NCBI GenBank assembly: GCA_963703285.1
Contig: OY969807.1
Span: forward strand, 1,536,001-1,600,000
Source of the DNA: an uncultured Nitrososphaerota archaeon
GTDB lineage: Archaea > Thermoproteota > Nitrososphaeria > Nitrososphaerales > Gagatemarchaeaceae
Reading direction: 5' to 3'
Length of the DNA stretch: 64,000 nt
Below the pieces are notes generated by a model. That model worked only from the letters and a program-made list of their open reading frames with translations. It had not been told where the DNA came from and did no database searches. How positions within the stretch are numbered: position 1 is the first letter of the stretch; each line of letters begins with the position of its first letter. The translations under genes were made by a program, and so were the position numbers. Positions 55,802 through 60,926 of this stretch are shown one piece after another.

Positions 55802-55850
55802 GCCATGTATAGGGTTCATTGCGCCTCCGCCGGGGCATTTCATCCACACG
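55802..55850 (-). other. Native 3' arm of the 23S rRNA processing stem (BHB: helix GCGC 55821-55824, bulge AAU 55818-55820)
   Basis: Complementary to the ITS segment 60875-60926; together they form a canonical 3-4-3 BHB. Confidence 0.9.
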
Positions 55851-56277
55851 TTGGGCTATAGTAATTGGACGGGCTGAACACGTCGACCTTGCGGTCTTCG
55901 TGCGTACACCCCCAATACTTCAACGGAGTCTTCTACTCCCGCCCTTCTCAGCGTGCCCCTCTAGCCTTGCGGCCGGAAGGGTGTAGCTGATAGAACACTC
56001 TTCTTGGGAGTGGCTTCCTGCTTAGATGCTTTCAGCAGTTATCCACAACAGCTTAGCTGCCCGGCGGTGCCCTTTCGGACAACCGGTACGCCAGAGGCTG
56101 CGCGCCGCTGTTCCTCTCGTACTGAGCAGCGCTTCCCCGCAGTGTTCTTCCGCTTCCATCAGGTAGAGGCCGACCTGTCTCACGACGGTCTAAACCCAGC
56201 TCACGTTCCCCTTTAATGGGCGAGCAGCCCCACCCTTGGCCCCTGCTGCAGGACCAGGATGGGAAGAGCCGACATCG

Positions 56278-57154
56278 CAATCTTATCCGAAATTTCTTTC
56301 GGGATCAGACTATGTCTTCACCCTCCCGCACTTTCGAAGGAGGGGTTGGCGTATGATGGCTGACAGCGCACGTTGTCGCGGCGCGTCGGAACGCGCCTCG
56401 TGAACCTGCTTTGGGCCGGTTCTTGCGCTTAAATAACCAGTCTGCGCCCCTTCCCGGCATGTCAGACGGAAATCCGCCTTCATTCTTCCGGTCGTGGGAA
56501 CGCATGTGGGAGGTGCTGTCCTTCATCACCCTCCTGCTGGGAATCCTGGTCTTTCTGATAGCGCCCTTCGGGGGCGTTACCCAGACCGACGGCACGTATC
56601 TCCTGGCCATCAGCGTCGTCAGCGTCCTGCAGGCCATTTACTTTGACCGCAAGGCGCTCGAAACCGAGGCCAGGCAGGCCGAGGGACACCCAGCCAGCTA
56701 GTCATTTCGCCAAGCCATCTCATCACGCACATCTCTGCGCGCTCAGTCGTTACGGGGTCATATGGGAAGATCGATTCTACCCGTGACAGAAATACCGCAA
56801 CCAAAATCCACACCGGCCCGCCCTACGGCAGGACGGCATCTCGTCTGGTTGCGCCCGCTTGCATCCGCCGCCGGAACTTGCGCTCCGGAGCGTTTGCTGC
56901 CGGAGGATGTGTTCTCATTCGAACCCTTTCCTGTATTGTCCATCTTGGAAGAAGTGCCCTCAGTGGAGCGAACTCTTGGCTGTTTTGTTGCTTTAGCTAG
57001 AAGCAACCAATTGCTCGCTTACTTTTACCCATAGACTTCCCACGGCGTTGCCCTCTTCCGTTTCTTCAGTGTTCCCCGGAAGGAGGGGTTCGCCGTTATA
57101 AGCCAATGCTTCAAATCGCGTTACCGTGATTTTGCCCCGAGACCCGAAGGTCCA
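56278..57154 (-). ncRNA. Group I intron at L2500 (IA-like)
   Basis: Splits GGUACCU^CGAUGUC; exon ends in U, intron ends in G; R-like CCCGUAACGACU (about 56745-56757), S-like AAGACAUAGUC (about 56308-56318). Confidence 0.88.
56459..56701 (+). CDS. 80-aa two-TM protein inside the L2500 intron, antisense to the rRNA
   Basis: ATG 56459 to TAG 56701; two hydrophobic helices; TTAAATA 30 nt upstream. Confidence 0.6.
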   Translation: MSDGNPPSFFRSWERMWEVLSFITLLLGILVFLIAPFGGVTQTDGTYLLAISVVSVLQAIYFDRKALETEARQAEGHPAS

Positions 57155-57716
57155 AGGTACCAAACCGCGGGGTCGATTGGAGCTCTCGCCCGCGACGAGC
57201 CTGTTACCCCTGGGGTAACTTTTCTGTCACATCCAGCCCCCAACAGTGGGGACATGAATGATCGCTAGGCCACACTTTCGTGGCAGAGAACTCTGCGTTT
57301 AAGTTCCCTGTCAGGCCGGCTTTTCGCCTTGCCGTCAACGATGGAGTTCTGACCCATCTGAGCCGACCTTTGGGCCCCCTCGATATCTTTTCAAGGGGGT
57401 GCCGCCCCAGCCGAACTGCCCACCTGCCGGTGTCCTCCCGTAGGAGTTAGCGATACAGTCGCGAGGGACGGGTGTTACATTGTCGACTCCACCTGAGCCG
57501 GAGCCCAGGCTTCGAAGTCTGCCCGTTACACTCTGCAACCGCAACCGAATCGCAGCAACAAGCTGCAGTAAAGCTCCACAGGGACTTCTCTCCCCGATGG
57601 AAGTTGCTGGACTGTTCGTCCAGCTTACGTAGGTTCGCCGGGTCGTAGATAGGGACAGCGGGGCCCTCGTTGGTCCATTCATGCACGTCGGAACTCACCC
57701 GACAAGGCATTTGGCT

Positions 57717-58123: not shown

Positions 58124-58254
58124 ACCTTAAGAGAGTCAGAGTTACTCCCGGCGTTTACAGGCCCTTAGCCCAGTTGAACCCAGGTTTTAGGTACCTGCAC
58201 TGGCCAGGATTCATAAACTGTACACACCCTTTCGGGCTTGCAGTTTACTGTGTT

Positions 58255-58899
58255 TTTTAACTCAGCCGGTGCCTCCTCTAGCCAGATTATCGGTTCCTCA
58301 CCTTCTTCCTCTTTAGCTTGACTGACGGAATTGCTTTGATGAATCTGCGGAGCGAATCGCGTCTGTATATCTGAAGACCATGGATCGTGCTGTACTTGTA
58401 GATGTGCGAGTATGTTACTCCTAGGAATTCCAGCCTTTGCTGGATCGCTTCCAGGAGAGCTTTGTTTCCGTTGTAGATTACGACTCGGTCGGTCACCGTC
58501 CCTTCGGCGTCCATGACGCCTGCGATGAAGCTTCGGGCCTCATCGTCTGACAGTTCCCCGACGTACGTCGTGATGTGTTCGAACTTTGTCCGAAGGTCTA
58601 GGTACAGTTCCTTGGAGTAAACCAGGGCTCTGTACTTCCAGACCTTGTCGGATTTTGCGTAGTATCGATACGAGTACACCTTGTACCCGAGTTGCTGGAG
58701 TCTTGGAATGGTGTGTTCGATGATTTCCTTGTTGCGCTCTGTCTGGTCTACCCAGACGGCGTACGCTCCGTCTTTGCGCTTCGACGTCGAACCATCCCCG
58801 AATAGTATTCCTACCAGGTATGGGTCGACGCGCATCTTGTCTGACTAGTTGTGGTCTGTATTTCAGGACCGCTATCTCTTGGCCGGAGGCCCGTGCTGA
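58255..58899 (-). ncRNA. Archaeal-type (probably BHB-spliced) 23S intron near L1785
   Basis: Interrupts CUGUUUAAUAAAAACAC; termini form a long stem (UCAGC..GCCUCC / GGAGGC..GCUGA); no group I core; exact junction ambiguous within the A-run. Confidence 0.8.
58287..58835 (-). CDS. Double-motif LAGLIDADG homing endonuclease
   Basis: YLVGILFGDG and FIAGVMDAEG motifs, inside the intron. Confidence 0.92.
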   Translation of the reverse strand: MRVDPYLVGILFGDGSTSKRKDGAYAVWVDQTERNKEIIEHTIPRLQQLGYKVYSYRYYAKSDKVWKYRALVYSKELYLDLRTKFEHITTYVGELSDDEARSFIAGVMDAEGTVTDRVVIYNGNKALLEAIQQRLEFLGVTYSHIYKYSTIHGLQIYRRDSLRRFIKAIPSVKLKRKKVRNR

Positions 58900-60874
58900 T
58901 TTATTAAACAGTCGGGACCCCCTCGTTATTGCAACCTGCGATCCCAGTTCAACACTAAGAACGCAGGCACCACTTTTCGCTAACTTACGTGGCTAATTTG
59001 CCGAGTTCCCTTACCTACAGTTCCCCGACACGCCTTAGGCTTCTCACCTAGGATCACTGGTGTCGGATCTAGGTACGAGCTTCAGTATCCCTATCCTCCT
59101 ATGTTTTCACTGTCTCCGGGAATGGGCCTAACGATCCCAACGGACCGCTATTCTCCCCTCGGAGGAGTTCTCGTCATTACGACACTCCCTCCCCCTTGGA
59201 TGATTAAACAGAGCGAATAACTCTGTAAGGCTCGTCTCGAAGCATCATAGGTGATGTTTTCTTGCGAATTTTCGGAATACCGAAGGCTGCGGAATATTAA
59301 CCGCATTCCCTCATTCGACCAATACTGTTGAGTTTGGTCTTAGGATCGGCTAACTCCTGGCTGATGACGCATTGCCAGGAAAACCGTGTCCTTTCGGCGG
59401 TCAGGATTCTCACCCGACTACGCTGCTACTACTACCGGGATCTGCACTGGAGGTCGGTCCACTGGATCTCACGACCCAGCTTCTACCCAACCACCACGCC
59501 CATCTACCACATACCACCCACAAGGTGGCAGTCCAGAGTATCGGTACTTGGCTTTAGCCCCGTCCATTTTCGGGGCCCTCAACCTCGGCAGGTGAGCTGT
59601 TACGCTTTCTTTGAAGGGTAGCTGCTTCTAAGCTTACCTCCCTGCTGTTTTAGGTCAAAGACTCCCTTTTGCTTGACACTTAGCCAAAATTTGGGGACCT
59701 TAACTCTAGTCTGGGTTAACCCCCTCTCGGTTATGAGGCTTACCCCACATAAACCCGCCTCCCCGCGTCTACTGCGTTGACACATTCGGAGTTCAAGAAG
59801 AAAGTGGACCCTTTCGGATCCTTGTTTTCTCGTTGGTGCTCTACAGCGTCAACTACATCGGCGGAGACAGGACTGGGATCCGCTTCGATGGGAACTAGCA
59901 ATCACCGAACTAGATAGGCTTTTGGCCCCTTGGCCAGAATCAGGGGACTAAATTGCACGTTAAGACCCTTGCAGTCCTCGACCAGGCTTTCGCCCGGCTT
60001 CAACTTGTTCTGGCCACGATCGATCGGTTTCTAGTCTAATCCGCCATGACTTAAAGGCCCTTTCAGACCTCCTGCCAGGCCCCTTGCGGGGTTACGCAGA
60101 ATCGCTTTCGCTTCGCCTCCGGGCTTTGAACCCTTAGGCTCGCCATGACAAATAACTCCCCGGCCCGTGTTTCTAGACGGAACTCAGGACACTGAGGCAC
60201 TTAACCCACGTTGAGGACCCTTGCAGGTTATCTCGGCGGGCCGAAGCCCACGTTGAACCCCTGTTCGGGTGGTCTCGCTGCGGAATCATACCTCTTTCAT
60301 GCCCTGAACGTCTGTAGCTGGATGGTTTCAGGCTCTTTGCACACCCCTTTCGGGGTACTTTTCAGCTTTCCCTCGCGGTACTAGTGCTCTATCGGTCTTG
60401 GTTTGTGTTTAGTCTTGGGGGCTGCTTTCCCCCGTCTTCCCTAGCCACTGCCAAAGCCCGTTACTCTGCCTTTCGCACGACCTCGTCGTCGAACAGCCTA
60501 CAGGACTATCACCTGATATTGTCTGCCTTTCCAGGCAAGTTCGGCCGCACGACTTCAGGGTCGCATATGCTAAGGCGAACCCCACATCTCCCGGCCCTTT
60601 CGGGCAAGGATTCGGTTTGGACTCTCCCGCGTTGGGTCGCCCCTACTGACGGGATCTCAGTTGATTTCTCTTCCTCCTGGTACTCAGATGTTTCCTTCCC
60701 CAGGGTTTGCGTTCCTTGCGGAACGGAAGGATGCCTTGCGGCAGTCCTCCCAGATTGGAATCCATTCGGGAATCTCCGGATCGAAGGATGCTTGCGCCTC
60801 CCCGGAGCTTATCGCAGCTTACCGCGCCCTTCTTCGCCATACCAAGCCAAGCCATTCACCATACAGCGTCGTTG

Positions 60875-60926
60875 TGTCGGATGATTAACATCCCCGGCGG
60901 ATGCTTGCGCGAACCCTATGCATGGC
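60875..60926 (-). other. 5' arm of the 23S processing stem (BHB partner)
   Basis: Transcript reads GCCAUGCAUAGGGUUC-GCGC-AAG-CAUCCGCCGGGG...UCAUCCGACAC. Confidence 0.9.

Follow-up and report, generated by a model that had tools for sequence, protein, structure and literature searches.

Archaeal rRNA is processed at bulge-helix-bulge (BHB) sites (PMC7038931), defined by two 3-nt bulges, one per strand, with a 4-bp helix between them; at the locus described here, the native 23S site and the 16S stem are both predicted to have this form. Two kinds of gene array are comparable at the DNA level. Sedentary chromosomal integrons, such as the Vibrio superintegrons, are long one-directional arrays of mostly single-gene cassettes (~0.3-2 kb) with a recurring site that contains the cassette limits; from one species to the next their cargo is hypervariable, and toxin-antitoxin cassettes, which may face either way, form part of it. 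Integrons are reported in archaeal MAGs in PMC9668308. Islands of the tycheposon type (bioRxiv 10.1101/2020.12.28.424599) and those of thaumarchaeal elements (PMC6563490) are described as targeting the 3′ end of a stable RNA gene, with a repeat that restores RNA function and partial gene copies scattered through the island adjoining the gene. The 68 mapped sites given in PMC6563490 comprise 39 tRNA genes, 15 intergenic regions and 14 protein-coding genes, with no rRNA gene among them. The present array shares all of the above features of chromosomal integrons, but it has neither IntI (best TIGR02249 score 40 bits, cut-off 265) nor any recombinase gene at the insertion point. Whereas attC sites are imperfect palindromes that act as single-stranded hairpins, the site here is a 24-nt copy of one strand of an rRNA processing stem, with the end of the rRNA operon as its platform. 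With the tRNA/tmRNA islands the array has in common the kind of target, the restoring repeat and the scattered partial gene copies, but its target is the 23S trailer stem, the units are mostly single genes without integrases, and 40-80 units make up an array. In contrast to BHB processing itself, the repeats are DNA-level duplicates of one strand, the partner of which occurs once. No published description of a 23S-anchored cassette array was found in literature searches.

The analysed window is a 64,000-nt stretch of the genome (G000) of an uncultured Nitrososphaerota archaeon of the Gagatemarchaeaceae (GCA_963703285.1, contig OY969807.1, positions 1,536,001-1,600,000). Its rRNA operon is encoded on the minus strand, with the 16S gene at 61077-62574 and the 23S gene starting at 60884 in the Rfam matches. 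The Rfam match to the 23S gene stops at 56999, but the true 3′ domain extends to ~55836, as indicated by the sequence and by blastn against a relative. The 23S gene (55836..60891, minus strand; Rfam, sequence, blastn against relatives, Pfam) carries several insertions, and a group I intron match (57779-58154) and a LAGLIDADG ORF (58287-58835) lie inside it. A sequence-only reading of this DNA had proposed that the ITS (5′) arm at 60892..60916 (minus strand; GGGUUC, GCGC, AAG bulge, CAUCCGCCGGGG; a single copy in the genome) and the trailer (3′) arm at 55812..55835 (minus strand; CCCCGGCGGAG, GCGC, AAU bulge, GAACCC; the reference for the repeat core) pair as a canonical BHB. Cofolding bears this out, as the threaded BHB is predicted at −51.5 kcal/mol against −51.6 kcal/mol for the MFE structure. 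Threading places a helix, the 4-bp helix and a 3-nt bulge on each strand, with GCGC/GCGC as the central helix, AAG and AAU as the bulges, an outer helix of 6 (+10) bp and an inner helix of 11 bp with one bulged A. By the rule reasoned from tRNA introns, the bulge of a BHB sits 3′ of the 4-nt segment. The modelled 23S site displays the defining geometry, that is, two 3-nt bulges on opposite strands, a 4-bp helix between them and flanking helices, and the 16S stem is predicted to share it. The piece considered in the sequence-only reading was bounded at 55802 and 60926 because the stem continues 10 nt outward, where GCCAUGCAUA on the ITS side (60917..60926, minus strand) forms 9/10 pairs with UAUACAUGGC on the trailer side (55802..55811, minus strand) by sequence and cofolding. 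The same 10 nt on the trailer side follow about one quarter of the repeat copies.

The trailer arm alone is repeated (26-34 copies), whereas the remaining three rRNA arms, including the 16S BHB arm, are found once apiece in the genome even at up to 4 mismatches; both the proposal that the core is one half of the 23S BHB and the remark that the 16S arm is not repeated thus held. A 16-mer with at most 2 mismatches gives 35 matches in the window, all on the plus strand, where 0.04 would be expected. A profile search of the 2.25-Mb genome found 43 copies, 40 of which lie within 1529677-1591835, all on the plus strand, forming a co-oriented array of ~66 kb directly downstream of the 23S gene and in the orientation of the rRNA. 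Among 174 copies from three genomes, conservation amounts to 84-99% at core positions 1-15, 83% at position 0 and 61-79% at positions 16-23, with an abrupt fall at position -1/0. As this set had been chosen on the 16-mer, the profile was redone with anchors outside the 16-mer, and the peak again fell on the 24-nt arm; the earlier statement that the conservation peak coincides with the motif was thus correct. The previously proposed common core, GGGTTC-ATT-GCGC-CTC, needs new limits, since the conserved block is the whole trailer arm and the smallest block common to the copies, read by eye, is the 13-nt GGGTTCATTGCGC, consisting of outer helix, bulge and 4-bp helix.

Three copies precede the window (genome positions 1529677, 1532881 and 1535938). 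Array block A (1065..10119, plus strand) has cores starting at 1065, 4025, 4496, 5434, 6117, 6889, 8695, 9454 and 10096 and a degenerate copy near 7931. Block B (25493..50289, plus strand; motif and profile search, cargo by Pfam) holds 27 cores, with cassettes of 0.29-1.8 kb between them, starting at 25493, 26305, 27232, 27752, 28289, 29062, 30816, 31652, 32293, 33150, 33917, 34540, 35723, 36262, 37120, 38710, 39591, 40867, 42199, 44018, 44309, 45035, 46722, 47691, 48676, 49305 and 50266, and a degenerate copy near 29961. Arrays also lie directly after the 23S gene in two relatives, G014 and G008, with 80 and 49 cores, respectively, and one array covers ~126 kb of a 3.1-Mb genome. The core is present in 86 of 97 genomes of the family, 48 of which have at least five copies. 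A repeat of the genome's own trailer within 40 kb downstream of the 23S gene was found in none of four genomes of other families, while the same analysis returns 25 copies in G000.

The copies separate cassettes of 0.3-15 kb (spacing 291-15397 nt; median unit ~0.8 kb). A CRISPR array was rejected as an explanation, as these intervals hold whole genes instead of regular short spacers. Read in the rRNA sense, a unit consists of a core, an optional outer-stem-like flank, usually one gene, an optional 23S-3′-end-like flank and the next core. As in an integron-style array, mostly single-ORF cassettes in one orientation have their limits within a recurring site. The 374 ORFs (at least 50 aa) in 166 cassettes of the three primary arrays fall into only 35 small families. 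Pfam matches include PIN/MazE toxin-antitoxin pairs, two methyltransferases, an amidohydrolase, AHSA1, an epimerase, RibD_C, Schlafen/AlbA_2 and wHTH proteins. The longest ORF runs in the rRNA sense in 101 of 157 cassettes (up to 3.5 kb, with an ORF), and does so in all cassettes whose Pfam match is neither PIN nor MazE (~10 by our own tally, which takes in weak matches below curated cut-offs). Four cassettes shared by G000 and G014 correspond from core to core, beginning at −1 to +1 (one at −13) and ending at +19 to +23 of the next core, with 89-95% nucleotide identity; the flanks beyond the cores are unrelated and the neighbours are different. A fifth shared stretch lies inside a cassette, and the order of the shared cassettes is not fully colinear. 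The sequence-only reading had left two options, the first being that the core is a recombination target. This option gains support from the shared-cassette limits within the core and the differing neighbours, as well as from array contents that differ from species to species and array sizes from 0-2 to 81 copies among relatives with the same native trailer.

The core is therefore probably the recombination joint of an integron-like capture platform, the attachment site of which overlaps the 23S processing stem. Cassettes would enter and leave through recombination within the core, of which GGGTTCATTGCGC is the smallest shared stretch. Anything inserted beside the 23S gene would have to regenerate the trailer strand, or else excision of 23S rRNA by the splicing endonuclease would fail; the crossover segment and the RNA-constrained segment would therefore coincide, which would explain why the conserved core is half a BHB. 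Distal copies would be left-over joints, not working RNA elements. An RNA constraint on the core is in keeping with three observations. Among the internal positions, variation is highest at two bulge nucleotides out of three (22 and 25 of 174 copies); 47 of 174 copies continue the outer stem with at least 8/10 pairs to the ITS segment, compared with 0.18% of random 10-mers; and the core is unchanged in a genus whose 23S 3′ helix differs. Such a platform would be integron-like gene capture independent of IntI and attC in abundant uncultured soil archaea. It would link horizontal gene flow to an rRNA-processing signal and offer a simple reason for the RNA-level conservation of a mobile-DNA joint, and the 24-nt core provides a ready probe for the cassette pool of this lineage in soil metagenomes. 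Several observations count against the platform, namely the absence of a decay gradient with distance from the 23S gene across the copies and the 23S-like flank in 48 of 174 copies, which would never join the 23S gene in this model and for which there is only an ad hoc explanation. Neither an excised circle nor an empty site was seen.

A dedicated recombinase may be dispensable if circles that bear 25-70 nt of the 23S end and trailer integrate through a single homologous crossover, either at the native site or at one of the copies, and loop out between direct repeats. This homology-driven route is compatible with the lack of a recombinase at any primary array and with the many copies that have extra native homology on one or both sides (median 26-28 nt in total, range 13 to ~80 nt). 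In 14 of 174 copies the 23S-end-like flank is unlike the resident 23S gene, as though these copies had been picked up in a different lineage. Neither inspection by eye nor folding shows the core to be a palindrome, and it has no hairpin potential, a point that also speaks against the platform. Its folding energies give a mean z of −0.07 and 0.09 on the two strands of 41 copies, with 1 of 82 folds below −2 (mononucleotide shuffles, RNA folding parameters). On the other hand, homology on the 23S side ends with the 24-nt arm in 126 of 174 copies and amounts to 0-2 nt on the other side in most, which is very short for homologous recombination. The copies had been taken to be truncated at varying points on either side, but the left boundary is sharp to one nucleotide even in copies with unrelated flanks, and the extensions fall into discrete classes, 0-2 or ~10 nt on the trailer side and ~3, 11 or 31-40 nt beyond core position 13 on the 23S side, rather than a continuum. 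Homology alone thus appears unlikely to account for the array.

A tandem pile-up of once-complete integrative elements, tycheposon-like or of the tRNA-gene type, which decayed to single genes and left displaced target 3′ ends as repeats, follows a logic common to elements that target 3′ ends of stable RNA genes; as described in bioRxiv 10.1101/2020.12.28.424599, new arrivals push older elements outward, leaving partial gene copies. Direct repeats that match the 3′ part of the target are indeed present, in the form of the trailer arm with as much as ~40 nt from the 23S 3′ end, and there are two larger units. The 23S-proximal unit of 5.5 kb (50290..55801, plus strand; ORFs, Pfam) includes replication-like genes; its plus-strand ORFs are a 333-aa ORF (50390-51391), a P-loop ATPase (51342-53318), a further ORF (53315-53704), an RNase H-like exonuclease (53963-54613) and a putative PD-(D/E)xK nuclease, P0001 (54617-55747), a homologue of which (33% identical) occurs in a near-proximal 5.5-kb unit of a sister species. 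The second is a 15.4-kb block flanked by cores (10120..25492, Pfam), with genes for an alpha/beta hydrolase, SHMT, a deacetylase, a luciferase-like monooxygenase, an AMP-binding enzyme, a thiolase and aminotransferases; it separates cassettes 9453-10115 and 25588-26275, whose matches in G014 lie ~0.7 kb apart. However, PF00589 is matched in 0 of 166 cassettes of the three primary arrays, and no integrase-bearing element or remnant was detected inside with PF00589 or PF16795 (the latter without a match in the genome). The median unit is ~0.8 kb, the distance from ORF end to the following core is 5-54 nt in six and 142 nt in one of the seven cassettes measured, and units common to two species keep the same core-to-core limits. 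A classical crossover at the 5′ edge of the identity block also predicts that the 23S-like flank moves with the following body, and the opposite is seen. Decayed elements are, on this evidence, a very unlikely origin of the cassettes.

The second option raised earlier was that the copies act as RNA. In it, the only ITS arm of a read-through pre-rRNA would pair with a distal copy, and the splicing endonuclease and ligase would cut or join between cassettes. The shared orientation with the rRNA and the concentration of within-core variation in the bulge would suit such a role. A fully BHB-compatible arm is kept in about half of the copies (21 of 41 here, 32 of 82 and 24 of 51 in two relatives), and PMC7038931 describes spacer ligation after BHB cleavage as established in other archaea. 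Nevertheless, the other half of the copies lack part of the arm, and each genome has just one ITS arm, which the native cut uses up. TTTT runs are enriched after the core, where 27 of 174 copies have one compared with 4.7% of control windows, AT-rich boxes lie by eye 25-45 nt ahead of the start codon in several cassettes, and the conserved flank shows no excess of start codons (17 of 174 copies; control windows gave 6-14). Altogether, an RNA role for the distal copies finds no support and is highly improbable. A ‘ribosomal integron’, in which the 23S processing stem would serve as docking site for a new kind of recombinase or only for host recombination, and the rRNA promoter would drive the 23S-adjacent cassette, which the BHB cut would then free from the transcript, is a distinctly unlikely extension; if true, the splicing endonuclease would become part of cassette expression.

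For the capture platform, a recombinase would have to act in trans. PF00589 has 10 matches across G000, G008 and G014, none inside or beside any primary array, which weighs against the platform. The sole match in G000 is 36 kb away and adjoins tRNA-Leu; neither it nor any of its 84-89% identical orthologues, also beside tRNA-Leu, has a core nearby. Two further genomes point the same way, as G058 (96% complete, 17 copies) has zero PF00589 matches and G041, without an array, has one. Arrays exploiting Xer/dif were rejected on the lack of a palindrome like the 28-bp dif site and on a score of 96 bits against the XerA model NF040815 (cut-off 220); the integrase family scored there is patchily distributed, occurring in 28 of 81 genomes of the order. 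The best candidate would be the tyrosine integrases with a C-terminal zinc ribbon. This family is found in 7 of 10 genomes with at least 10 copies and in 1 of 13 with at most two (genomes at least 90% complete), and, of all 29 genomes that have 10 copies or more, 14 lack it, a comparison confounded by kinship and mobile-element load. At all three loci examined, a satellite core is preceded, 0.5-1.9 kb upstream and in the same orientation, by a zinc-ribbon integrase or another tyrosine recombinase. The same arrangement recurs in 4 of 39 tabulated metagenomic loci (of 56 returned); at a fifth the core lies within the integrase match itself, and at a sixth it has the opposite orientation.

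Regarding the identity of the repeat, the proposal of the sequence-only reading that its core is the trailer-arm half of the 23S bulge-helix-bulge (BHB) motif is confirmed. Allowing ≤2 mismatches, the 16-mer GGGTTCATTGCGCCTC occurs 35 times in the window, exclusively on the plus strand, against an expectation of 0.04, and a profile search of the whole genome returned 43 matches, of which 40 lie in 1529677-1591835, all on the plus strand, and 3 lie elsewhere. The remaining three rRNA processing-stem arms occur once each, including the 16S BHB arm, which the same reading had described as not repeated. 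In the 23S BHB, the ITS arm (60916-60892; GGGUUC GCGC AAG CAUCCGCCGGGG) faces the trailer arm (55835-55812; CCCCGGCGGAG GCGC AAU GAACCC), and both arms follow the strand order of helix, 4-nt central helix, 3-nt bulge, and helix, which is the canonical BHB geometry as reasoned from tRNA introns. With the BHB pairing imposed explicitly, the duplex has an energy of -51.5 kcal/mol, compared with an MFE of -51.6, and the outer stem is extended by 10 nt, with GCCAUGCAUA (60926-60917) opposite UAUACAUGGC (55811-55802). The 16S processing stem has the same design. When the copies were compared by eye, the minimal common stretch was GGGTTCATTGCGC, which covers the outer and central helices together with the bulge.

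The window (G000:C1:1536001-1600000 of a complete, 2.25-Mb genome) contains no tRNA genes and a single rRNA operon on the minus strand, with the 16S gene at 61077-62574 and a 23S gene starting at 60884, the 3′ domain of which was traced to approximately 55836 from the sequence and by blastn against relatives. The Rfam LSU match stops at 56999, approximately 1.1 kb short of the true 23S 3′ end. This 3′ domain is broken up by insertions that a sister species does not have; the 23S insertions with no counterpart in the sister species G014 are at 56361-56710, 57779-58154, and 58257-58900. One insertion matches an Rfam group I intron model (54.6 bits), and another contains a LAGLIDADG homing-endonuclease ORF (58287-58835, minus strand; PF14528, E = 6.9e-12).

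Across 174 copies from three genomes, conservation reaches 84-99% at core positions 1-15, 83% at position 0, and 61-79% at positions 16-23, and it falls sharply at the -1/0 boundary. The predicted peak on the BHB motif is thereby borne out, and it is unchanged when the profiles are anchored outside the 16-mer. The description of the copies as truncated at varying points did not hold; the left edge is sharp instead, and the flank extensions can be grouped into classes. The copies showed no gradient of decay along the array, the Spearman coefficient being approximately 0 for G000 and, for G014, -0.22 (p = 0.05). Of the three bulge nucleotides, two are the most variable sites inside the core (22/174 and 25/174). 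The trailer-like flank continues the processing stem, and in 47/174 copies this outer-stem-like sequence can still pair with the ITS segment at ≥8 of 10 positions, compared with 0.18% of random 10-mers. The 23S-end-like flank carries the genus-type 23S 3′ end in 34/174 copies and other 23S-end-like sequence in 14/174. Past the outer-stem flank, 5-50 nt after the core in the rRNA sense, a T-run preceded by a GGCATGCC palindrome is found repeatedly (e.g., window 39550-39585 and 48640-48670); TTTT is present in 27/174 copies versus 4.7% of control windows. The palindrome and T-run may represent the terminator of the rRNA operon, transported with the cassettes. An ATG in the conserved flank is not enriched as a start codon. 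A TATA-box regular expression gave zero matches, and the AT-rich boxes before cassette genes are a by-eye reading.

The unit of the array was delimited by comparison with G014. Four cassettes common to both genomes (89-95% nucleotide identity) span core to core; their starts fall at core positions -1 to +1, except for one at -13, and their ends lie in the next core, at +19 to +23. The sequences outside the bounding cores are unrelated between the two genomes. A fifth common stretch is internal to a cassette. As the common cassettes are bounded core to core, the unit reads, in the rRNA sense, core, trailer-like flank, gene, 23S-end-like flank, and core. The core had been proposed either as a recombination target or as an RNA element, and the former role is supported; in the simplest reading, cassettes would be inserted and removed by recombination inside the core, the sequence of which would be constrained because the 23S-adjacent copy must still form the BHB. 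The main rival is a homology-driven route, in which homology itself would drive the exchange. A pile-up of decayed elements is less likely. BHB cleavage, circularization, and spacer ligation are established in other archaea, according to PMC7038931. An RNA role for the array copies is not supported and is likewise less likely. Under the preferred reading of recombination inside the core, the array groups with integron-like or stable-RNA-anchored gene-capture systems. No published description of such an array was found in the literature searched, in which supplementary tables might still contain some, and the words integron, cassette, 23S, integrase, mobile, and repeat are all absent from PMC10640624. 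Judged from this literature, the array appears to be so far undescribed.

The arrays of G014 (80 cores) and of another relative, G008 (49 cores), also directly follow the 23S gene in the same orientation as in G000. The core was found in 86 of 97 family genomes, with at least 5 copies in 48 of them, and several complete family genomes contain the native copy only. Synteny between G000 and G014 is kept upstream of 16S and is absent on the array side. The flank genes of the array-less relative G041 have none in common with G000 or G014. Repeats of the genome's own trailer within 40 kb downstream were absent from four genomes of other families, compared with 25 in G000 under the same treatment. 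Among IMG/VR viral contigs, 11 exact 16-mer matches were obtained; as none extends beyond the 16-mer, they were taken as chance. At G058:C4:1068-32134, two core arrays of opposite orientation face each other across approximately 8.5 kb, and a tyrosine recombinase is not detectable in this relative.

Core-to-core spacing ranges from 291 to 15397 nt. Pfam cargo includes PIN/MazE toxin-antitoxin pairs in either orientation, two methyltransferases, an amidohydrolase, an AHSA1/SRPBCC protein, an NAD-epimerase, a RibD_C reductase, a Schlafen/AlbA_2 protein, wHTH proteins, and a weak ion-channel match. By manual tally, all Pfam cassettes other than the toxin-antitoxin ones lie in the rRNA sense. Metabolic genes make up a 15.4-kb block (10120-25492) with cores on either side, and the cassettes bordering it are only approximately 0.7 kb apart in G014. 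The 374 ORFs (≥50 aa) found in 166 cassettes of the G000, G008, and G014 arrays group into only 35 small families.

The candidate recombinase is a tyrosine integrase (PF00589) with a C-terminal zinc ribbon. G000 encodes one tyrosine recombinase, a 412-aa zinc-ribbon protein (G000:C1:1627269-1628601) that starts 7 nt past a tRNA-Leu(CAG) gene and scores below the cut-offs of XerA and integron-integrase models. Its orthologues (84-89% identical) also lie at tRNA-Leu, with no cores nearby; in other species, they are found beside tRNA-Leu genes with other anticodons (TAG and GAG). A partial copy of the tRNA-Leu(CAG) 3′ half is located at 1605081-1605124, 22 kb upstream of the integrase rather than downstream. 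Within the order, the family has a patchy distribution (28/81 genomes). At 3/3 loci examined, satellite cores have a co-oriented paralogue or other integrase upstream of them, and the same arrangement occurs at 4 of the 39 metagenomic loci tabulated (56 returned). Genomes with arrays have the family more often (15/29 versus 8/41), and so, among genomes at least 90% complete, do those with ≥10 copies (7/10) compared with those with ≤2 (1/13), both comparisons being confounded by kinship and mobile-element load. Against this candidate, G058 has 17 copies and zero PF00589 matches. The SSV-type integrase model PF16795 has zero matches in the G000 genome, and a lone small serine recombinase is far off, at 685876. 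Two distant reverse-transcriptase ORFs (G000:C1:1883084-1883773 and 2041636-2042325; 600-aa frames) match RVT_1 identically (E = 1.2e-40) and are possibly group II intron copies.

The plus-strand genes of the 23S-adjacent unit (50290-55801) include those for a P-loop ATPase and an RNase H-like exonuclease, as well as P0001 (54617-55747), which, from its conserved KGPDSLR...AYFEFKWW motif (PD...ExK-like), looks like a PD-(D/E)xK nuclease. A solved-fold search gave no match at E ≤ 0.001 (AF2 model pLDDT 79). P0001 was rejected as the recombinase; its family is very rare, with 5 relatives among 5.8 billion proteins, it is present in 6/15 genus genomes searched, and it matches no PHROG family. The 23S trailer core is 65 nt away from the P0001 stop codon, and a 33% identical homologue is present in a near-proximal unit of G014.
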